Shown here one piece after another: positions 39,755-55,585 of a stretch of DNA of 64,000 nucleotides (position 1 is its first letter; every line of letters begins with the position of its first letter). This DNA comes from a virus. The stretch is taken from the IMG/VR virus record IMGVR_UViG_3300045988_057942; one strand, 5' to 3'. The notes beneath the pieces were generated by a model, which saw nothing but the letters and a program-made list of their open reading frames with translations, searched no databases and had not been told where the DNA came from. The translations under genes were made by a program, and so were the position numbers.

Positions 39755-39757
39755 GTT

Positions 39758-42700
39758 ATGGCTATATATCAAGGAGATATTGGAATACATGATATTAAAC
39801 TTGGTAGTATAGATGTATTTGAAATATATCAAGGTTCTAAACTTGTTTATCCTGAGAATACTGAAGTTACTGTTACGTTTAAATTGAATGTTTCCGGAAC
39901 TGTTACTATTAATGGTTATACTCCTGTTATAAGTGAAAATAATACTAAATTTGTATTTACTATTCCTGTTAAGACTGATTATACTGCTAATATTACTGCT
40001 GAACATTATAAATCTCAAACTATTAGTGGTAACAGTGGTTATTTACCTATAACTCATAATGTAGAATTAGAATGGGAACAAGAATTTATATCTTATACTG
40101 TTACTTTTCCTACTGATGGAGTTAAAGTTTTATTTGATGGAATAGAAAAAGGAGTTATAACTAATGGTAAGTTAGTTGTATTAATTGATGATATAGAAGC
40201 TAAAGATAGTTATACTGTTACATTTGAAGGTAGTAAAGCTAGTACATATGATACTAGTGGATTAAAAGTAGTAGATAGTAGTATAGCTGCAACTGGTGGT
40301 AGTTATGATTTAAAACTTTCTACTAGTTCTGTTAAGACTGCTTATACACGAACTGACTATGCATCCTCCACGGGGAGTATAACCAAGGGTTCTACTTATA
40401 CTGGTTCTTGGATTGAAACTGTTGTTAATCTTACTGCTAGTTTTACTAGTTCTACTACTTTAGGTTCTATAAGTAATAATGTACTAACTATTGCTAATAA
40501 TGAATCTACTAATACTAAAAGTGGAACTTTAACTGTTATATTTACTTTAGAAAATAAACAAACTAAAGAAGTTAGTGCTGCTTTAAATCAAGCTGCTGGA
40601 GCTAAAGTTTATACTAATTGGGTATTAGATTTACAAACTGATGGAACTAGTGTTGAAGCTAAAGGTGGTACTAGAACAGTTACAGCTAATATTGCTCGTA
40701 GAACTTATAAATGGAATAATACTGGTACTGTTTATAGTGAAACTGCTACTCCTACTCTTAGTATTAGTGGTAGTGCTAGTCTTAGTGGAAATCAAATAAA
40801 ATTTACATCAAACGAGAGCGTTTCAGCCCGTTCTGCGGTACTTACTGCTAGTTATGTAGGATTATCCAAAACGATTACGATAACTCAATCAGCAGGCTCA
40901 AAAGTGTATTCAGCGTGGTCTGCATGGGCTGTTTCTATCTCGGCAAGTACGCAAACGATAGGCGCAAGTGGAGGAACATCAACAATAACTACTAGTGCTA
41001 GTCGTTCTAGAACTTGGACTTGGAATGGAGTTGGAACTACTCATACTGATACTGAAACAGGTACACCTACACTTAGTGGTAGTGCTGGTGGATTTACTTT
41101 AAGTGGTAAAACTGTTACTGCTAGTAACAATACTACAACAAATAGTCGTAGTATAACTATTACTGCTACTAGCAATAATGTTTCTAAGTCTATTACTATA
41201 ACACAATCTGCTGGTGCTAAAGTTTATGGTAATTGGTCTGCTTGGACTGTTAATATTAGTGCTGATAAAACTAGTATTGGAGCAACAGGTGGAACAGCTA
41301 CTATATCAACTAGTGCTAGTAGAACTAGAAGTTATACATGGAATGGTGTTGCCGGTTCTGGTGGTACAGAAACTGGAAATGGTACTCCAACGTTAAGTAA
41401 AGTTAGTGGAAGTGGTAATTGGACTAGTCCTAAAGTTACTTATGGAAATAATACTAGCACAAGTGGTAAATCAACTGTTATTCGTGCTACTATTGATTCA
41501 ACTACTAAAGATATAACTATTAGCCAATCTGCTGGAGCTAAACAATATAGTACTTGGTCTGCATGGACAGTTAATATTTCTAATAGTGGAAATATTGCTG
41601 CTAGTGGAGGTAGTTCAAATATAACTACTTCTGCAAGTAGAACAAGAACTTGGACGTGGAACGGAGTTAATGGAAGTGGTGGAACTGAAACAGGAACTGG
41701 AACTCCTACTCTTAGTAAAATTAGTGGTGCTGGTTCATTTGCTAGTAATAAAGTAACTTATGATAATAATACTTCTACAAGTGCTAGAAGTACAGTTATT
41801 AGAGCTACAATGGATTCTGTAACTAAAGATACTACTGTAACTCAAAATGCTGGTTCTAAAACTTATAGTAGTTGGGGAGCATGGTCTATTAGTTTAAGTG
41901 CTAATGTAACAACTATTGCTGCTGCTGGTGGAAATGCTACATTATCTACTTCTGCTACTAGAAGTCGTACTTGGCAATGGAATGGTACAGGAACAACTTA
42001 TACTGAAAATGCTAGTGGTTCTCCAACATTAAGTAAAGTTAATGGTGCTGCTTCTTTAAGTGGTTCTACTGTTAGTTATGGTAATAATACTTCTACTAGT
42101 TCTCGTAGTTCTGTATTTAGAGCAACAATAGATAGTACTACTAAAGATATAACTATTAGTCAATCTGCTGGGGCTAGAGTATATGGAAGTTGGTCTGGTT
42201 GGACTGTAAGTTGTAGTGCTAGTAATTATAAAGTTTGGGCAGGAGGTGATTCAGTAACTATTTATAGTAGTGCTTCAAGAAATAGAACTTGGACTTGGAA
42301 TGGTGTTGCAGGTTCTGGTGGCACTGAGTCTGATAATGCTACTCCTACTATTTCTGTTACAAGTGGTGTTGGAGTTTTAAGTGGTAATACTTTAACTTTT
42401 AGTAATAACACATCTCCTGATGCTAGAACAACTCGAGTTACTGCTAATTATAACGGAGTTACTGATTATTGTGATATTATGCAATATGGTGGTAATAAAG
42501 TTGCTGGAAGTTGGACATCTTGGCAAGTAACTATATCTGCTAGTCCTATGAATATTGCTGCTGCTGGCGGTAGTTCTACTATTACTTGTAATGCTGTTCG
42601 TACTAGAAATTATACTTGGAATGGGGTGGGTACTACTTATACTGAAACTGAAAATGGTAGTCCAACTTTAAGTAAATCTGGAGATGGTACATTAAGTGGT

Positions 42701-43642
42701 ACTACTAGCGGTAGTAAACTTACTTATGGTAATAGAACTACTACAACAAGTAGAAGTACAACTGTTACTGCAACTTATAATGGAGTTAGTAAATCTATTA
42801 ATATTACACAATCTGCTGGTAGTAAAATTACAGGCAAAATGACATATCATACTGATATTTATGATAGAAATTCATCTAATTATACAGATTATACTAGTTA
42901 TCCTGTAACACATGATATTGGAGGTGAACCTGTTATTTCTGGAGGTGATACAATTATTACTTATTGTAGACTTCGTAAAACACAACCATGGACTTGGAAT
43001 GGTGTTAGTGGTAGTGGCGGAACAGATACTACTTATGCTAGCGCAAAAGATGTAGCTATTGTAAGTCAATCTAACTGTACAACTATTGTTAAAGATATAG
43101 GTAGTAATAATATGATTATGTTTAGTTCTGTTGTTCCCGCTAATTTAAGTAGTAGTGCTCGTACTTGGTATTTTAATTGGAGATGGTTAGGTTCTAATAA
43201 TACTACTATCCGAAATACACAAGCCGCAAATACTTTACGTGGTAGACTTGTTATTAAAAATGATTATTTTACTAGTCAAAATATTGCATTACCTATTTAT
43301 TTAGATAGTGAAAATGTAGATTCAATATATAAAGGAGAAGCAAGTTATAATGATATTAAAAAAACTCCTATTGGTGTTTATGTATATATTCCTACTAATA
43401 TTTCTATAATGAACGCTGGTAAATTGCAATTTTGGTTTGAAAATAAAGATGGTGGTGGCAGTAAATATACTTGTACTTTAAGTAAAGTTAGTACACCTTC
43501 AAATAGTGTTTTTGTATCTAATAATAATAATATTATTACTGTTACTGCTAATACAACTACTTCTTCATTTACTATATTATGTCAATTTACTATTACTTCT
43601 AATAGTACAATATTTAATGTAAGAGTTTTAATTGAACAATGA
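39758..43642 (+). CDS. Large structural protein (1294 aa) with 8 tandem ~105-aa Ig-like/BACON-like repeats (I[ST]QSAGAKVYxxWSAWTV...SRxRTWTWNGVG...TPTLS). In-frame GC-motif (YASSTGSITK).
   Basis: ~315-nt periodicity read from ~40590 to ~43100. Ser/Thr-rich repeats with conserved W positions. Confidence 0.7.
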   Translation: MAIYQGDIGIHDIKLGSIDVFEIYQGSKLVYPENTEVTVTFKLNVSGTVTINGYTPVISENNTKFVFTIPVKTDYTANITAEHYKSQTISGNSGYLPITHNVELEWEQEFISYTVTFPTDGVKVLFDGIEKGVITNGKLVVLIDDIEAKDSYTVTFEGSKASTYDTSGLKVVDSSIAATGGSYDLKLSTSSVKTAYTRTDYASSTGSITKGSTYTGSWIETVVNLTASFTSSTTLGSISNNVLTIANNESTNTKSGTLTVIFTLENKQTKEVSAALNQAAGAKVYTNWVLDLQTDGTSVEAKGGTRTVTANIARRTYKWNNTGTVYSETATPTLSISGSASLSGNQIKFTSNESVSARSAVLTASYVGLSKTITITQSAGSKVYSAWSAWAVSISASTQTIGASGGTSTITTSASRSRTWTWNGVGTTHTDTETGTPTLSGSAGGFTLSGKTVTASNNTTTNSRSITITATSNNVSKSITITQSAGAKVYGNWSAWTVNISADKTSIGATGGTATISTSASRTRSYTWNGVAGSGGTETGNGTPTLSKVSGSGNWTSPKVTYGNNTSTSGKSTVIRATIDSTTKDITISQSAGAKQYSTWSAWTVNISNSGNIAASGGSSNITTSASRTRTWTWNGVNGSGGTETGTGTPTLSKISGAGSFASNKVTYDNNTSTSARSTVIRATMDSVTKDTTVTQNAGSKTYSSWGAWSISLSANVTTIAAAGGNATLSTSATRSRTWQWNGTGTTYTENASGSPTLSKVNGAASLSGSTVSYGNNTSTSSRSSVFRATIDSTTKDITISQSAGARVYGSWSGWTVSCSASNYKVWAGGDSVTIYSSASRNRTWTWNGVAGSGGTESDNATPTISVTSGVGVLSGNTLTFSNNTSPDARTTRVTANYNGVTDYCDIMQYGGNKVAGSWTSWQVTISASPMNIAAAGGSSTITCNAVRTRNYTWNGVGTTYTETENGSPTLSKSGDGTLSGTTSGSKLTYGNRTTTTSRSTTVTATYNGVSKSINITQSAGSKITGKMTYHTDIYDRNSSNYTDYTSYPVTHDIGGEPVISGGDTIITYCRLRKTQPWTWNGVSGSGGTDTTYASAKDVAIVSQSNCTTIVKDIGSNNMIMFSSVVPANLSSSARTWYFNWRWLGSNNTTIRNTQAANTLRGRLVIKNDYFTSQNIALPIYLDSENVDSIYKGEASYNDIKKTPIGVYVYIPTNISIMNAGKLQFWFENKDGGGSKYTCTLSKVSTPSNSVFVSNNNNIITVTANTTTSSFTILCQFTITSNSTIFNVRVLIEQ
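40363..40385 (+). repeat. GC-motif copy (ASSTGS in the 1294-aa repeat protein).
   Basis: Read directly. Confidence 0.7.
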
Positions 43643-46567: not shown

Positions 46568-46610
46568 TAGATTATGTAGTTCAAACTACAAGTATTAATC
46601 TATTTTTTTT
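46568..46610 (+). terminator. AT-rich hairpin (TAGATTA..TGTAGTT caa ACTACA..TAATCTA) followed by T8.
   Basis: Read directly, 40 nt after the stop codon. Confidence 0.55.
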
Positions 46611-49527: not shown

Positions 49528-49869
49528 ATGAGAGTTATTAAGACTAAACATTTTCCTTTTGGTGGTTATAAAGCTATTAATCTTTTTGGTATTGTATTTA
49601 CTAAAGGAGAATTAAGTAATAGAGAACTTAATCATGAAGCTATTCATACAGAACAAATGAAAGAAATGTTATATATCTTTTTCTATATATGGTATGGTAT
49701 TGAATATCTTATTATAAGACTATTTCATATTAAACAACATGATGCTTATAAAGATGTAAGTTTTGAAGAAGAAGCTCATATTAATGATGATAATCTTAAT
49801 TATATTAGTGAACGTAAACATTATACTTGGACTAAATATCTAGGTATTAATAGTTCTAAAACTGCTTAA
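49528..49869 (+). CDS. Small HExxH protein with a TM segment (113 aa; NHEAIHTEQ). Putative zinc metallopeptidase-like.
   Basis: HEAIH is read in the translation. A hydrophobic segment follows. Confidence 0.4.
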   Translation: MRVIKTKHFPFGGYKAINLFGIVFTKGELSNRELNHEAIHTEQMKEMLYIFFYIWYGIEYLIIRLFHIKQHDAYKDVSFEEEAHINDDNLNYISERKHYTWTKYLGINSSKTA

Positions 49870-49950
49870 TTAAAAAATGTTAATAATATTGTTAAACTAC
49901 TTGTTATTAATAATATAATTTATATTTGTAACAAACTAAATTCTAAAGAT

Positions 49951-50466
49951 ATGGAAGATGATAAAAGAGTTAATTATAAGTTAGATGCTATTAATAAACT
50001 TATTAATAATCTTAAACTTAGTATTTCTGGTAATAAAGAACATGATGAGCTTGGAGAAAATAATGTTATAGTTAATCTTGATGAGATTAGTCAAAAGATT
50101 ACTGAATTACATGAAATGGTTAAAGCTGAATTTGATGAGTTTGAAAATCAACATAAAAGTGAATCAGATGAAACTCAAACTCTTCTTAATAGTCGTTTTG
50201 ATAAAGTTGATGCTAAATTAGATAGTATTAAAGCTGCTGTTGATAGTATGAAAACTACTATTGGTAATAAACTTGATACTGTTAATTCTACTATTAATAA
50301 AGCAAATACAGATATAGTTGCTGCGATTAATGCTATGAAAACTAGTAATGATACTAAAAACGATGCTATAATTACTGCTCTTCAAGGACTTGTAACTAAA
50401 GTTAATCGAAATACTAGTAATATTAATTCTCTTAACGGTCGAGTTGATGCTCTAGAACAAGCTTAA
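49951..50466 (+). CDS. Coiled-coil protein (171 aa). Fibre chaperone or assembly-like.
   Basis: ORF with heptad-like periodicity. Confidence 0.55.
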   Translation: MEDDKRVNYKLDAINKLINNLKLSISGNKEHDELGENNVIVNLDEISQKITELHEMVKAEFDEFENQHKSESDETQTLLNSRFDKVDAKLDSIKAAVDSMKTTIGNKLDTVNSTINKANTDIVAAINAMKTSNDTKNDAIITALQGLVTKVNRNTSNINSLNGRVDALEQA

Positions 50467-50467
50467 C

Positions 50468-51928
50468 ATGAATTTTAATTTAGTAGAAATGTATAATGGC
50501 TTGTTAAGATTTAATAAGCATATACTAAATGAACTTGCAGAAGGACTTAAACATCTACCTAATTTAGATGGAGTATCTAAAGGAGATAGTTTAATTATTA
50601 ATGAACAAGGTAATCCAGCTTGGGGTTCTGCTGCATTTATTCCTACTTTTGAAAATGCTGCTTATGGTATTGAATGGACTAAAGATGATAATGATATAAT
50701 CAGAATTGGTAATGCTAAATTTCATAGAGAACTTCCTATTCAAAATAGACTTAAAGGTTGTGTCTATAATGAAAAGAAAATCAGTTATTTCCTTAATCCT
50801 ACGGGTTGGGCTAAACCTCTTGAAAATGGTTTTGTTCCTCCTCTTGATGGAAGTGATGGCGATGTTGGGGTAAGAGTTCCAGAGTTTTATATGTGCGTTA
50901 AAGATACTGGTACTAAATATCAACTTTGGATAAGTGATTTTAATATTGATGGAACATTTACTAGAGTTCATCCTTTTATTATAAGTCATACTAAAACTAT
51001 GACTAGAACTAGAGAAGATGGTAAAGAAGAAGTATTTAGTGCTTGCATTAAACATGATAATACCAGATATTTAGGAGGAAATAAAAGTTCTTCTGTTGTT
51101 GCTACTAAATTACAAGGTAGACCTAGAACTGGTATTAATTATGATAAAGCAAATGAATTTTGTGCTAATCGCGGTGATTGGATTACAATGATTGATTATC
51201 TTGAATATTGTGCTTTACAGGCTCTTTGTTATATTGAGTATGCTAATTTTGATAATCAAGCTGCATTAAATACTAATTTAACTAGTGAAGGATTTAAACA
51301 AGGAGGTCTTGGTGCTGGTGTTACAAATTTAAATTGGGATAGATGGGCAGCTTTTAATGGTAATAATCCTATTGTACAAACTTATTGGACTGCTGAACAT
51401 AATATTGGTAATGGTAGTACAAATGGTGATCATTATGAACTAGGAAATTATAATGCAGATGGAAGTAATTTAAATACTTATCCTGCTGTTTATCGTGGTA
51501 TTCTAAATTTCTTTGGTGATATATGGACATTTGTTAGAGATGTAGCTATTATTAATAAAGATACAAATTATAATAGTGTTTATCTTCTTAAAAAAGGTGT
51601 TAATCATTCTGATATTACAATAGATAATATTCAAGATAAATGTTATTTTATAGGTGACCAAGCTAATACTAATAATTTTATTACTGAATTTGATTTTAGA
51701 TTTGGTCCTTATTTTGTTCCTAATAAAGTTGGAACTAATAAAAAAGCTGACTATAATTGGAAAAGAGGTAATGATGGACAAGATACAGATAAAGCTGTTC
51801 GTGTGCTTCTGCTTGGCGGTGACGCTCTTAACGGTTCTGCGGCTGGCTCTGGTTACTTTGGTTCTCATTGGGTTCGGTCGGCTTCTGATGCTGGTGTCGG
51901 CTTCTTTACCACAGTTAAGCTTGATTAA
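50468..51928 (+). CDS. DGR target protein (486 aa). Receptor-binding/tail fibre candidate with a C-terminal variable region of C-type-lectin-like composition (...GGDALNGSAAGSGYFGSHWVRSASDAGVGFFTTVKLD).
   Basis: Its 3'-terminal 105 nt match the downstream template repeat except at template-repeat adenines. Confidence 0.8.
   Translation: MNFNLVEMYNGLLRFNKHILNELAEGLKHLPNLDGVSKGDSLIINEQGNPAWGSAAFIPTFENAAYGIEWTKDDNDIIRIGNAKFHRELPIQNRLKGCVYNEKKISYFLNPTGWAKPLENGFVPPLDGSDGDVGVRVPEFYMCVKDTGTKYQLWISDFNIDGTFTRVHPFIISHTKTMTRTREDGKEEVFSACIKHDNTRYLGGNKSSSVVATKLQGRPRTGINYDKANEFCANRGDWITMIDYLEYCALQALCYIEYANFDNQAALNTNLTSEGFKQGGLGAGVTNLNWDRWAAFNGNNPIVQTYWTAEHNIGNGSTNGDHYELGNYNADGSNLNTYPAVYRGILNFFGDIWTFVRDVAIINKDTNYNSVYLLKKGVNHSDITIDNIQDKCYFIGDQANTNNFITEFDFRFGPYFVPNKVGTNKKADYNWKRGNDGQDTDKAVRVLLLGGDALNGSAAGSGYFGSHWVRSASDAGVGFFTTVKLD
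51803..51907 (+). repeat. DGR variable repeat (VR).
   Basis: 105-nt alignment to 52073-52177 with 22 mismatches. Every mismatch is at an adenine of the template repeat (17 to G, 3-4 to C, 2 to T). Confidence 0.8.
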
Positions 51929-51942
51929 ATAAGTCCACGTGG

Positions 51943-52018
51943 AACTGTTGCTAGGAGTAGTTGGTTAATTAATTTGTTTTCTGTTTTTGTATTTCTCGAT
52001 ACTACTCCTGCAACAGTT
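51943..52018 (+). other. Long hairpin/cruciform downstream of the VR. Arms AACTGTTGCTAGGAGTAGT (51943-51961) and ACTACTCCTGCAACAGTT (52001-52018). Analogous to the hairpin that enhances DGR homing.
   Basis: ~18-bp inverted repeat read directly, ~35 nt after the end of the VR. Confidence 0.6.
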
Positions 52019-52072
52019 TATTATAATAATATTAAAGGTTATATTTCTTAAGATGATTGACATTTAGATACA

Positions 52073-52177
52073 GTGCTTCTGCTTAGCAGTAACGCTAATA
52101 ACAGTTCTAAAGCTAGCTCTAGTAACTTTAATTCTAATTGAGTTCAGTCAGATTCTAATGCTAATGTCGGCTTCTTT
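52073..52177 (+). repeat. DGR template repeat (TR). Non-coding, contains an in-frame TGA. AAC/AAT (Asn) codons occupy the variable positions.
   Basis: See the VR alignment. Lies 150 nt upstream of the RT gene. Confidence 0.8.
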
Positions 52178-52327
52178 TATATAATTCCTAAAACTAATAA
52201 ATATAAGATTAATATAAATATTATTTTGGGAAGTATAACCTTACCTCTTGGTAAAAGATAACGTTATTTAGAAACTAAAAGTGTTGGTAGTGATATTTAC
52301 GAAGGCTCTTATATAAATTATATAAAT

Positions 52328-53278
52328 ATGAAAAGATATAGTGGTTTACATGATAAACTATGTACTATTGAAAATATTGAAGTTGCTGATGATAATGCAA
52401 GAAAGAATAAGAATAAGAAATATGGTATTAATAAACATGATAAAAATAGACAATATGAAAATGAAGATTTGGTAGATAAATTATTTAATCTTAAATATAA
52501 AACTTCTAAATATAGTCTATATAAAATATATGAACCAAAAGAACGTATTATTTATAGACTTCCTTATTATCCAGATAGAATTGCTCATCATGCTATAATG
52601 AATGTTGTAAAAGATATTTGGACAAAAAGTTTTATTCATAATACATATAGTTGTATTGAAGGTAGAGGTATTCATCTTTGTGCAAATAATCTTAAAAGAG
52701 ATTTAAGAAAATATCCTAACGAAACTACATATTGTCTTAAATTAGATATTAGAAAATTTTATCCTAGTATTCCTCATGATGGTCTTAAGAAATGTATTAG
52801 AAAGAAAATTAAAGATAAAGATTTTCTAATGATTCTTGATGAAATTATTGATTCTACTGATAATGTTCGTGATATTTCTTCTAAATTAACTAATAAGATT
52901 GGAATTGGAGTTCCTATTGGTAATTATCTATCTCAATACTTTGCTAATCTTTATCTTAGCGAACTTGACCATTTATGTAAAGAAGAACTTAAATGTAAAT
53001 TCTATTATCGTTATGCTGATGATATAGTTATTCTAAGTGATAATAAAGATTTTCTTCATAAAGTTCTTATTTATATTAAATTATATGTTCATACTATTGG
53101 ATTGAAAGTTAAAGATAATTATCAAATATATCCTGTTAATAGTAGAGGAATTAATTTTGTTGGTTATGTATTTTATCATACTCATACTCTAATTAGAAAA
53201 TCTATTAAGTATAAAATTATAAAACTAGTAAATAGTTATTTAAATAGAGAAATCGATAAAAAAAAGAATTTAAAGTGA
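52328..53278 (+). CDS. DGR reverse transcriptase (316 aa in frame 0). RT motif 2 is CLKLDIRKFYPSI. DGR-specific motif 4 is IGNYLSQYFANLYL (SQ in place of QG). Motif 5 is YRYADDIVIL (YADD). Motif 7 is INFVGY. It ends at a slippery A_AAA_AAG.
   Basis: All motifs are read in the translation. Adjacent to the TR/VR pair. Confidence 0.85.
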   Translation: MKRYSGLHDKLCTIENIEVADDNARKNKNKKYGINKHDKNRQYENEDLVDKLFNLKYKTSKYSLYKIYEPKERIIYRLPYYPDRIAHHAIMNVVKDIWTKSFIHNTYSCIEGRGIHLCANNLKRDLRKYPNETTYCLKLDIRKFYPSIPHDGLKKCIRKKIKDKDFLMILDEIIDSTDNVRDISSKLTNKIGIGVPIGNYLSQYFANLYLSELDHLCKEELKCKFYYRYADDIVILSDNKDFLHKVLIYIKLYVHTIGLKVKDNYQIYPVNSRGINFVGYVFYHTHTLIRKSIKYKIIKLVNSYLNREIDKKKNLK

Positions 53279-53625
53279 GAATGTGTGCTTATTATGGATG
53301 GCTTAAACACGCTGATGCTAAAAATCTTCTTTATAAAATTCAAAGTCTTACAGGTGTCAGATATTCTAATTGGAATGGTAAAAGAACTAATATTACTAAA
53401 TATTATGGTAAATACGTTAGAATAATTCAAATTATTAATTATGCTAAGTATTTTAGAATTAATTTTATTAGAAATGGTGAAGCTTATTACGCTGATAGTA
53501 GAGATAAAACTCTATTTTATTCTATACATAGATTTAATCATTTTCCTATTAATTTTAAAATTATTAAATATGACTGGCGTATTTATGCTAAAAATAGAAA
53601 AGAAAAAGTTAAACTTAAAACATAA
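53275..53625 (+). CDS. ORF (116 aa) in the -1 frame relative to the RT. It begins with ...YYGWLKHADAKNLL, which resembles the conserved C-terminal tail of DGR RTs. Probably the RT C-terminus reached by a -1 frameshift, or a split caused by a homopolymer error.
   Basis: The frame opens right after a TAA inside the A8 run, and the classic heptamer A_AAA_AAG is in frame 0. Resemblance to the DGR RT tail is recalled from memory, not searched. Confidence 0.45.
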   Translation: MRMCAYYGWLKHADAKNLLYKIQSLTGVRYSNWNGKRTNITKYYGKYVRIIQIINYAKYFRINFIRNGEAYYADSRDKTLFYSIHRFNHFPINFKIIKYDWRIYAKNRKEKVKLKT

Positions 53626-53631
53626 TATATT

Positions 53632-53913
53632 ATGACTAAAGATAAACTTAAAGATGATATTATTAGAACTATATGCTGTTTAAATAGTGATATATCTAAT
53701 AAAGATAGAAAATTATTAATTGAATTATTGAATTCTATTGTTGATTATACTAATAATACTGAACTTGAACAAGATGTTAAAGTTATAACACAAAAACATA
53801 ACGAATTAGCTGAAACAGTTAATGAACTTAAAACTAAAGTTGAAACATATTCTGATAAGATTAATGAACTTGAACAAAGAGTTCGTCAATTAGAAAACGC
53901 AAGTCAATCTTAA
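53632..53913 (+). CDS. Small coiled-coil protein (93 aa).
   Basis: ORF. Confidence 0.55.
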   Translation: MTKDKLKDDIIRTICCLNSDISNKDRKLLIELLNSIVDYTNNTELEQDVKVITQKHNELAETVNELKTKVETYSDKINELEQRVRQLENASQS

Positions 53914-53914
53914 C

Positions 53915-54619
53915 ATGGCTAGTCTTAATCAATTAGTTAGTGAATTTGCTCATGCTGTTGGCAATCCTAATAGTATTCCTCTTAGACGTAATCTTCGATA
54001 TGCTATTCTTCATGGTCGTAATGAACTAATTCGTAAAAGTTATGAAAATCATAAATATGTTGATAAAGGTTTGCAACAACGTATTCGTGTTTCTATTATT
54101 AATGTTCCTGATGGTGACCTATATAATAGTCAAACTCTTGGGCTTCCTGCAATTAAACGTACTAAACAAGAAGTTCCAAAGCCAGTTAGACTTATTAATA
54201 ACTTACCTTTCCAATCAATTAGAACTACCGGACATTCTGGGATAGAAATACCTTTTGCTAAAGAAGCTAGTGCTAAGTTTTATCATTATCTTGCAGGTAT
54301 GTGTAATCTTCCTGTTTATGATTATATTAACGGTTATATTTATTTCTTTAGTAATAATAAAGATTGGTTTCAAAATATAGGTTCTATTATTATTGAATCT
54401 CCATTTGAAATTCCTTATCTTGTTCCTACCGAAACTGTTGAAAAAGCTAAAGATGTAAATTATGACCCTATTGATGATGAAGCTAAATACGATGATGATG
54501 AATTTCTTATTCCTGAAGATATGATTGGGGCTCTTAAAGAAATTGTATTTAAACGTAATCTTATTGAAGTTCCTCGTCAAACAAATGAAACTCCTATTGA
54601 TAATTTTGTAACTAGATAA
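53915..54619 (+). CDS. Hypothetical structural protein (234 aa).
   Basis: ORF. Confidence 0.6.
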   Translation: MASLNQLVSEFAHAVGNPNSIPLRRNLRYAILHGRNELIRKSYENHKYVDKGLQQRIRVSIINVPDGDLYNSQTLGLPAIKRTKQEVPKPVRLINNLPFQSIRTTGHSGIEIPFAKEASAKFYHYLAGMCNLPVYDYINGYIYFFSNNKDWFQNIGSIIIESPFEIPYLVPTETVEKAKDVNYDPIDDEAKYDDDEFLIPEDMIGALKEIVFKRNLIEVPRQTNETPIDNFVTR

Positions 54620-54622
54620 ATT

Positions 54623-55585
54623 ATGATTAAAGATATAGATATTAGTCATTATTATAAAAAGTTTATTGAAACTTCTAATGACGATATGGCAAAATATAAT
54701 AAAGAACTTGAACTTATAAATAAGATGAAAGCTGATTGTCGTGCTTATATTAAAAGTAAAAATCAAGTTATTAAAGATGATTTAAAAATAAATCTTAATG
54801 AATATGGGTTTCAATTTCTTAATGATAATGTTGAATTAATTAATAAGTTAGAACAATTAATTAATAATCGACTTAGTTATACAGTTGGAGAAAGACGTAT
54901 TGTTCTTCTCCAACTTTTGCGTTATTGTAATTTAGCTAAAAAAGCAAACGATTATATTATTGCTCTTAAACTTGCTACAAGACGTTCTGAATTAAGTCTT
55001 TCTGATTATAAAAAGTATATTCATAGATATTATAGTTATGGTGTTCATAAATGTGTTCTTGAAGGCTATGCTTATCATTTTAAATATGAAATTGGTGACT
55101 TAGTTATTAATTTCTGGAGATATAGAGATAAACCTAGAGATACTTATGTTGATTGGAACGCTACTAGACTTAAGAAACAAGAAATTATTGATGCTGGTCT
55201 TAAACCTTATGATAAAGAAGAAGCAGAGATATATAAAATTCGTGGACTTAAATATGATGGTATTCCTTATGTAGTTTATAAAACTAATAAAGAGTTTTAT
55301 GAAATACAACTTATTAATAATGGAACTCATAGTTATAGTGCTATTAAATTTAAGTATGCTAATTATATTAATAGAGAGCTTCGTGGTAAAGATGCTAAAC
55401 AACTTAATTCTGAATGTAAAACTGTTGATGATATTTTTAATCTTAAATTAGGATTAAGAAGTAAACTTCTTGTTTATCTTGAACGAGAACCTAATGCTCC
55501 ATTTAAATATATTAGAAATGTTAATCAACAAAAGTATGAACGTGGAGCACATAATAATGGTAATAAAACTAGATATAAAAACTAA
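54623..55585 (+). CDS. Hypothetical protein (320 aa).
   Basis: ORF. Confidence 0.65.
   Translation: MIKDIDISHYYKKFIETSNDDMAKYNKELELINKMKADCRAYIKSKNQVIKDDLKINLNEYGFQFLNDNVELINKLEQLINNRLSYTVGERRIVLLQLLRYCNLAKKANDYIIALKLATRRSELSLSDYKKYIHRYYSYGVHKCVLEGYAYHFKYEIGDLVINFWRYRDKPRDTYVDWNATRLKKQEIIDAGLKPYDKEEAEIYKIRGLKYDGIPYVVYKTNKEFYEIQLINNGTHSYSAIKFKYANYINRELRGKDAKQLNSECKTVDDIFNLKLGLRSKLLVYLEREPNAPFKYIRNVNQQKYERGAHNNGNKTRYKN

Follow-up and report, generated by a model that had tools for sequence, protein, structure and literature searches.

A diversity-generating retroelement with an interrupted reverse transcriptase frame in a crAss-like phage

The repeat pair, the target gene and the reverse transcriptase

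We examined a window of 64,000 nucleotides (nt) of viral DNA (IMG/VR record IMGVR_UViG_3300045988_057942), of which positions 50,468 to 53,625 had been described in a first-pass annotation as a complete diversity-generating retroelement (DGR) of a crAss-like phage. We observed that this region was 95-98% identical to genomes of p-crAssphage (Carjivirus communis and its strains), and a crAss tail ring protein was recognised by Pfam directly downstream of the cassette. On this identity, the window is to be regarded as a strain of p-crAssphage, a common human-gut virus. The cassette is an already known element that has been rediscovered here: it is the orthologue, at 96-98% identity, of the DGR of crAssphage LMMB, described in 2020 (Morozova et al., Viruses 12:573, PMC7290462; GenBank MT006214). 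That paper gives the layout as target-VR(IMH)-TR(IMH*)-RT, with no avd and with 28 adenines in the TR (VR, variable repeat; TR, template repeat; RT, reverse transcriptase; IMH, initiation of mutagenic homing). It assigns the RT to lineage 3 in the scheme of Wu et al. 2018, describes IMH and IMH* as identical, and reports cassettes that were intact in 15 of 91 genus-I genomes and incomplete in 66. Our finding adds one strain to this published DGR, and its direct value is low. The features of the locus, with the open reading frames (ORFs) and the lengths of their products in amino acids (aa), were as follows.

50468..51928, + strand: DGR target gene, a 486-aa tail-collar fibre / tail protein (from the ORF, GenBank annotation, PHROG 5302 and fold)
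51803..51907, + strand: VR, codons 446-480 of 486 in the target gene
51942..52019, + strand: inverted repeat past the target stop codon, with a stem of 19 base pairs (bp), one bulge and a 39-nt loop (from folds and compensatory changes)
52073..52177, + strand: TR, non-coding, with 28 adenines and a TGA at 52139-52141 in the VR frame
52232..52333, + strand: structured RNA resembling Rfam RT-17, in the TR-RT spacer and ending at the RT start codon
52328..53278, + strand: RT ORF1, 316 aa, with fingers, palm and most of the thumb, PIGNYLSQ and YADD; it ends at a TGA made by the frameshift
53258..53265, + strand: A8 tract, longer by 2 nt than in any relative; the insertion breaks the reading frame of the RT and makes an in-phase A_AAA_AAG at 53260-53266
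53275..53625, + strand: RT ORF2, in the -1 frame, with the remaining thumb (YYGWLKHADA) and a C-terminal extension of ~93 aa

In an independent repeat search, the highest-ranking direct repeat of the region was the pair 51803-51907 and 52073-52177 (105 nt, 79% identity, spacing 270), with homology that ended abruptly at both sides. The upstream copy (VR) lies in frame within gene 50468-51928, and the downstream copy (TR) is non-coding. When the two copies were aligned by software and tabulated base by base with a script, 22 mismatches were found over the 105 positions, and the TR carried an A at every one of them (22/22; hypergeometric P = 1.5e-17), as had been claimed at first pass. The VRs of the wider population agreed with this restriction of mismatches to TR adenines, which is a defining property of DGRs. 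The TR has 28 adenines, of which 22 were changed in the VR, with 16 A-to-G, 4 A-to-C and 2 A-to-T changes. Two details of the annotation needed correction, as it had counted 17 changes to G, and had taken the VR for the last 105 nt of the gene when a further 21 nt, stop codon included, follow it up to 51928. The final 12 nt of the VR (51896-51907, GTCGGCTTCTTT) are adenine-free and the same as the end of the TR, and form an IMH-like segment just beyond which the homology stops. The VR of this window was unique among the VRs compared and had no non-adenine mismatch to its TR. No further VR-like copy was found in the window.

The target gene is annotated as a tail-collar fiber protein in MT006214 and BK010471, and its product matched the PHROG 5302 tail protein (3e-105). 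Sequence searches of Pfam, NCBIfam and the PDB gave no match, and for this protein the informative methods were fold comparison and a deep homologue search only. The exhaustive homologue search recovered residues ~60-486 as a C-terminal module in 1341 relatives, and this module is common to many DGR-type variable proteins. An AlphaFold2 (AF2) model built on homologues had a pLDDT of 88.5, and its best PDB fold matches in Foldseek were TaqVP (E 9e-8), Mtd and TvpA, followed by enzymes of the FGE/C-type-lectin (CLec) fold. According to this model, the target adopts a fold of the C-type-lectin type, like the DGR variable proteins of solved structure, which agrees with what the annotation had suspected from the composition of the C-terminus.

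The annotation had further stated that the next gene encodes an RT with an IGxxxSQ signature and a YADD motif. Both motifs were indeed present (PIGNYLSQ, fitting the DGR motif-4 signature [I/V/L]GxxxSQ, and YADD, fitting YxDD) and were invariant in 25 homologues in the family alignment, but the RT was found to be spread over two ORFs in different frames, 52328-53278 and 53275-53625. ORF1 matched Pfam RVT_1 (3e-18). After repair of the frame, the best PDB match was the DGR RT of phage BPP-1, bRT (8ub7_A, E 2e-39, over residues 2-339), while group II intron and retron-type RTs matched far more weakly (1e-16). The same ranking by fold, with bRT first, was obtained with an AF2 model of an intact orthologue (P0001). 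Membership of the DGR clade is thus strongly supported by the best PDB match in both sequence and fold and by the motifs; a placement in lineage 3 would follow from that of the orthologue in PMC7290462.

RT residues ~340-431 (window 53344-53622) extend past the end of bRT and were modelled as a small beta-sheet domain (pLDDT 83-88). This extension was common to the phage-borne relatives (contigs of 100-190 kb, with matches to residues 1-414/431), and the chromosomal Bacteroidota relatives were without it (matches to 1-338). No Avd-like Pfam or NCBIfam match was found among the ORFs from 49528 to 55585; the accessory gene avd occurs in most DGRs, although the definition does not demand it. The RT extension may substitute for Avd.

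As the locus has a target with its VR at the C-terminus, a TR that is non-coding and an RT of the DGR clade, the presence of a DGR in this crAss-like phage is borne out with strong support. Together with the population and reading-frame data given below, we consider it very probable that the locus is an Avd-less, lineage-3-type DGR of p-crAssphage, which diversifies 35 codons at the C-terminal, ligand-binding face of a tail-collar fibre, and which was recently active and now has a broken RT. As sequenced, the cassette cannot be called complete, for the RT frame is interrupted by a 2-nt insertion.

Population evidence and the interrupted RT frame

The locus was collected from 10 GenBank phage records, 7 IMG/VR contigs and 119 metagenome contigs. 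The TR was identical in 56 of the 66 genomes carrying one, and 106 distinct VRs, varying at the TR-adenine columns, were found among 110 genomes; the diversity of the VR beside an invariant TR that characterises a DGR was therefore observed between genomes. Across the 106 VRs, 73% of the adenine cells and 1.8% of the non-adenine cells were changed relative to the TR. Any two VRs differed on average at 12.1 of the 19 free sites, and the VRs are effectively independent draws. We also observed that point variants of the TR recurred in the VR of the same genome (a G-to-T in L006/C0531BW4, a C-to-T in both L053 and L066, and a variant in L125), and such mirrored variants directly record the copying of TR into VR. 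Where the RT was intact, genomes had on average 0.72 non-adenine mismatches in the VR, as against 1.83 in RT-less genomes (p = 0.0015), as would be predicted for VRs that are continually renewed by homing. The mirrored variants and the fresher VRs beside intact RTs are evidence, from sequence alone, of real TR-to-VR information flow in an uncultured phage.

In the same collection, 69 loci were long enough to judge. Of these, 18 were intact, 26 had, like the reference genome, neither TR nor RT, and the remainder showed partial deletions. Four crAssphage contigs carried point-inactivated RTs (L088, L090, L104 and L024), independent of one another. Three of these were nonsense changes, at codons 347, 97 and 323, all from TGG to TGA and none to TAG, and the fourth was a 1-nt deletion in an A5 run. 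The cassette is decaying in the crAssphage population, where most copies are no longer whole.

The deletions that removed the RT were of at least three different kinds (L002, L007 and L008, compared with window 52032-53609). In the reference genome (L002, BK010471), TR and RT are gone from 16 nt after the hairpin; in L007 (ZA) and L008 (O-152) the TR is kept and the RT is lost, with breakpoints that differ. All three genomes keep an adenine-mutated VR. During this survey, a 3.9-kb contig in the assembly of a Chitinophaga silvisoli isolate (L219, NZ_QTJV01000049.1) was seen to carry a 93% identical crAssphage RT, and complete crAssphage contigs were seen to be binned into 'Clostridia' metagenome-assembled genomes (a side observation on L218, L219, L220 and L221). 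The crAssphage sequences of these four records in public genomes are likely to be contamination or mis-binning.

In the window, the RT frame breaks at the A8 tract. All of the other RT-bearing relatives (37/37) had a 6-nt tract at this place (AAAAAA, AGAAAA, AGGAAA or AAGAAA) and a single ORF of 431 codons. ORF1 alone stops short of the thumb segment YYGWLKHADA, which aligns to bRT, and the intact RT ORF of an autonomous, complete element is therefore missing here. The RT nevertheless retains all 97 invariant and 150 near-invariant residues. Since the RT is not otherwise defective and the VR is unique and without any non-adenine mismatch, the A8 insertion, if real, should be recent, and the cassette should have been active until recently. 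We consider the insertion most likely to be a real and recent mutation of the RT, either inactivating or hypomorphic. At present the cassette has most probably ceased to work, or retains at best a weak activity that depends on slippage at the A tract. Such a break is in keeping with the decay of the cassette that is widespread among crAssphage genomes.

It is unlikely, in our judgement, that the cassette is instead fully intact and functional, with the A8 tract being a homopolymer error of sequencing or assembly and the true tract A6 (or A9). The uniform 6-nt tract of the 37 relatives, the lack of any other defect in the RT and a VR that looks freshly homed would all fit such an error. Against this, a homopolymer error of 2 nt is unusual, and an ORF-level census showed 39 of the 39 other coding sequences over 48 kb to be intact single ORFs, so the assembly is not error-prone. 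Real point inactivations of the RT also exist elsewhere (the three TGG-to-TGA changes and the 1-nt deletion), and the RT has been lost altogether in most genomes, as PMC7290462 also indicates. A raw megablast comparison with MW067001 had shown 208 indels, as if the assembly were riddled with errors; these were found to be paired +1/-1 alignment artefacts in divergent patches, and the idea was dropped. As a separate observation, the only run of at least eight T in the window (46603-46610) has one T more than MW067001 and is intergenic, between two tail-protein ORFs.

The RT might also still be made at a reduced level, by -1 ribosomal frameshifting or by transcriptional slippage on the A8 tract, giving a throttled DGR or, in the strong version, a phase-variable switch. 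The heptamer A_AAA_AAG at 53260-53266 is in the exact X_XXY_YYZ zero-frame register at the overlap of the two ORFs, and the tract is the only run of at least eight A in the 64 kb. A -1 shift would yield an RT of 432 aa with one extra Lys, including the thumb segment that aligns to bRT. The heptamer A_AAA_AAG is the slippery site of dnaX and of IS elements, and long A runs cause slippage of RNA polymerase. However, Bacteroidota have a cognate tRNA for AAG, and the site should be less shifty for that reason. The heptamer was present in none of the 37 relatives (0/37), which are all single-ORF, no stimulatory structure was found downstream (84 nt folded no better than shuffles, z = +1.14), and there was no sign of selection for a shift site. 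We regard a continued production of the RT at a reduced level as quite improbable; slippage could give a low-level rescue of the RT at most.

Two related ideas were rejected. An evolved programmed frameshift is ruled out by the absence of the site in 37/37 relatives and of a stimulatory structure. A reassignment of TGA to Trp had been considered for the TGA codons of the TR and of ORF1, but read-through of the stop at 53276-53278 would not lead into the right frame, genes in this region terminate in the usual way and TGG is carried by 101 of the 106 distinct VRs. For annotation pipelines and their readers, it follows that such cassettes should not be called 'complete' without a check of the RT frame.

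Template adenines and the structured RNAs of the cassette

The first-pass annotation had stated that mutagenesis cannot create stop codons in this repeat. The statement fails at two codons of the TR, as there is an in-frame TGA at 52139-52141 and an AAA codon that can mutate to a stop. In the VR of this window the TGA is represented by TGG (Trp), as it is in the 101 VRs mentioned above. In one locus that has no TR or RT (L108), we observed a TGA in the VR itself.

Nine TR adenines stand before a G (52085, 52088, 52103, 52111, 52115, 52121, 52141, 52146 and 52150). In the crAssphage VRs these nine sites gave 894 G, 49 A, 2 C and 9 T (954 cells), and they account for 9 of the 16 changes to G seen in the window. 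At a synonymous Ser site, TCA with its A before G, we observed TCG in 81 VRs, TCA in 15 and TCC/TCT in 3; the third position of the AAA codon was G in 102 of the 106 VRs. Adenines before A or T gave mixed outcomes in the crAssphage VRs, and A before C gave G, not C. The behaviour of A before G extended to 130 other TR/VR pairs (109 TRs, from RT relatives of 48-68% identity), where 433 of 449 such sites were G. Four-fold degenerate third positions before G in other DGRs were G in 70 of 72 cases, in more than 25 contexts.

The G excess of the VR is therefore largely a context rule. It had been attributed at first pass to a biased RT or to selection; both do operate, but 9 of the 16 changes are near-deterministic by the A-before-G context, even at synonymous positions. 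Since a TR adenine before G is read as G in at least 95% of cases and hardly ever as C or T, the TR codons AGY, TGA and CAG serve as scaffold codons that are in effect fixed for Gly, Trp and Arg. The AAY codons give the real diversity in this RT lineage. For bRT of BPP-1, a dependence on the base 3' of the adenine has been described together with a dominant misincorporation of C (10.1101/2025.08.18.670894; 2025 preprint, published 2026).

A G excess that arises only from protein-level selection for a Gly, Trp and Arg scaffold, with the RT itself unbiased, is in our view very unlikely. Of the nine A-before-G sites, seven occupy the first or second position of a codon that reads Gly, Trp or Arg in almost every VR, and a CLec scaffold fold conserves such residues, which is what selection would predict. 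Selection on the protein does not account for the synonymous TCA site being mostly TCG, for the G at the third position of AAA or for the 70 G at the 72 four-fold sites of other DGRs, and the error spectrum of bRT is likewise shaped by the 3' base. That the repeat is merely an ordinary duplication or gene-conversion remnant, unconnected with reverse transcription, is hardly credible, as nothing favours it except the direct repeat itself, and it is ruled out by the adenine-only mismatches (P about 1e-17), by the adjoining DGR-clade RT and by a population with an invariant TR, a hypervariable VR and TR variants transferred to the VR.

A slippage model, in which each A becomes its 3' neighbour, had been prompted by the A-before-T sites, of which 67 of 74 four-fold ones were T. 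It was rejected because those cases represent one homologous site, 6-8 nt from the repeat end, and because A before C gives G. A fixed difference of this kind, A in the TR and T in the VR, was seen 6-8 nt from the TR 3' end (context CAGCTATGCTT) in about 38 related DGRs. This boundary site looks like an IMH*/IMH difference, and it would inflate automated tallies of A-to-T changes.

The spacer between TR and RT matched Rfam RT-17 (RF03020) at 52237-52325 with 29.8 bits (E 5e-4), which is below the gathering threshold of 40.4. At the same position in three related loci (L182, L183 and L209), RT-17 scored above gathering (42.6-45.8 bits). A covariance model of our own (R1) was built from the window and these three Rfam-positive loci. 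It scored 76 bits in the window and matched 134 of 154 related loci, in every case on the strand of the RT and with its end at the RT start. The two-hairpin structure had 91.6% of cells paired, with 71 double-change cells as against 17 in shuffles, and 0 of 500 shuffles reached the observed value; slid controls were far lower, and these figures are to be read in the knowledge that the covariation alignment was fitted to the model. In common with RT-17, the element has a full-length model match on the RT strand, directly upstream of the RT, and a compensatory A-U/G-C change in P1; it differs in that the window copy scores under the curated threshold.

The available part of Weinberg et al. 2017 (PMC5737381) places the motif RT-10 in the TR-RT spacer of BPP-1, and only speculates about DGRs for other RT motifs. 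The TR of BPP-1 is flanked by RNA that encircles bRT-Avd and holds a duplex in place for priming in cis (10.1101/2023.10.23.563531). The RT-17-like element may, by analogy, be the RT-binding or priming RNA of the Avd-less lineage. Its presence in the spacers of the 134 loci ties the orphan Rfam motif RT-17 to Avd-less DGRs.

An 18-bp-stem hairpin after the VR had also been reported at first pass. The hairpin is real, but its stem is of 19 bp with one bulge and it is not of the canonical DGR type. Its arms (51942-51961 and 52001-52019) form a mixed stem that starts 35 nt after the VR. Pair 51951-52010 showed compensatory changes (CG 49, TA 19, TG 12), and a second double change was found in L023. 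Canonical DGR hairpins or cruciforms have a GC-rich stem of 7-10 bp and a 4-nt GRNA loop, 4-34 bp past the VR (Guo et al. 2011, PMC3240598), and 51942-52019 does not have this form. The hairpin was kept in genomes that had lost TR and RT, and a long-stem hairpin of the crAssphage type was not found in the related DGRs. A role as the conserved DGR target hairpin is not supported, both for its non-canonical form and for this lack of conservation in related DGRs. We also noticed a GC-rich 10-bp palindrome at 51933-51942 (TCCACGTGGA), which lies 5 nt past the stop codon of the target and adjoins the 5' side of the long hairpin. In size the palindrome is nearer to the canonical DGR hairpins, but it is strain-variable.

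By analogy with the Bordetella phage element, the RT would bind an RNA that holds the TR and the structured spacer downstream of it. It would then copy the TR into cDNA, misincorporating opposite adenines. The cDNA would replace the VR, with the adenine-free 12-nt repeat end, and possibly the conserved downstream hairpin, defining the target.

We put forward a joint proposal only tentatively, being somewhat on the doubtful side of even about it. In this proposal, a near-deterministic A-before-G code holds in at least 95% of homing products, at synonymous sites too, over more than 100 independent TRs, the RT-17-like RNA is the cis-acting priming or RT-binding RNA of Avd-less DGRs, and the beta domain of the phage RTs possibly replaces Avd in part. 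If true, TRs would write scaffold Gly, Trp and Arg as AGY, TGA and CAG, even with an in-frame stop, and only the AAY-type adenines would be randomised. The A-before-G rule and the spacer RNA bear on predicting the true sequence space of natural DGR targets, which is far smaller than 4^28, and on engineering DGRs without Avd that come from phages of gut Bacteroidota. A context dependence as such is already known, but the near-deterministic rate, its coding consequence and the RT-17 assignment appear to be undescribed in the literature that we searched.

Several points weigh against our account of the cassette. The A8 tract is known from the assembled sequence, and a fresh VR beside a broken RT could reflect either an artefactual break or an RT that a co-infecting strain provided in trans. 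Selection confounds the context rule at the first two codon positions, and part of the evidence from synonymous sites comes from homologous sites of related TRs. For priming, for the integration of the cDNA and for what the spacer RNA and the hairpin do, our account argues by analogy. The hairpin, moreover, differs from the canonical form and is absent in the related DGRs, and may be unrelated to homing.

Neighbouring genes and comparison with known systems

Downstream of the cassette, ORFs 53915-54616 and 54623-55585 are called 'IHF subunit / histone-like protein' in GenBank crAssphage records. The first of them matched crAss tail ring protein 2 (Pfam PF25702, 5e-57), so the older GenBank annotation is outdated. 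Upstream, a BACON-domain protein (39755-43639) is one intact ORF that reaches at least 60% identity to MW067001 only over residues 1-1091 of 1301. Its C-terminal ~200 residues diverge strongly between strains.

The closest known system is the DGR of LMMB and of other genus-I crAss-like phages. The loci are orthologous, with 96% nucleotide identity and the same target-VR/TR/RT layout. With LMMB the cassette shares a 105-nt TR with 28 adenines, a 486-aa tail-collar fibre target and the absence of avd, and IMH equals IMH* in both. The VR sequence differs, as expected, and the RT is a single ORF of 431 codons in LMMB, while here it is frameshifted by a change from A6 to A8. The available part of PMC7290462 makes no mention of the in-frame TGA of the TR, the context rule, the spacer RNA or the hairpin.

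The Avd-less DGRs of Bacteroidota chromosomes and large gut phages (L140-L297), whose RTs are 48-68% identical, are arranged in the same way, with the VR, then the TR 70-500 nt downstream, and then the RT about 150-250 nt further on. They share the spacer RNA ending at the RT start (134/154 loci) and the rule that A before G becomes G. They differ in that the chromosomal ones are without the C-terminal extension of the RT, none has the long-stem hairpin of crAssphage, and the N-terminal regions of the targets vary in length.

The prototype DGR of BPP-1 (mtd, avd, TR, brt) has the same adenine-specific TR-to-VR transfer, and bRT is the closest solved homologue of the RT (29% identity, TMt 0.77). 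Both systems act on a receptor-binding tail protein whose VR lies at the C-terminus in a CLec fold, and both have an inverted repeat downstream of the VR and a structured RNA between TR and RT (RT-10 in BPP-1, according to PMC5737381, and an RT-17-like element here). The crAssphage cassette differs from that of BPP-1 in being without Avd and in the additional ~93-aa C-terminal beta domain of its RT. Its IMH and IMH*, moreover, do not differ from each other. The BPP-1 hairpin has 8 GC-rich bp and a 4-nt GRNA loop, as against 19 bp and a 39-nt loop in crAssphage. Finally, the adenines of the crAssphage TR stand not only in AAY codons but also in AGY, TGA, CAG and TCA codons.

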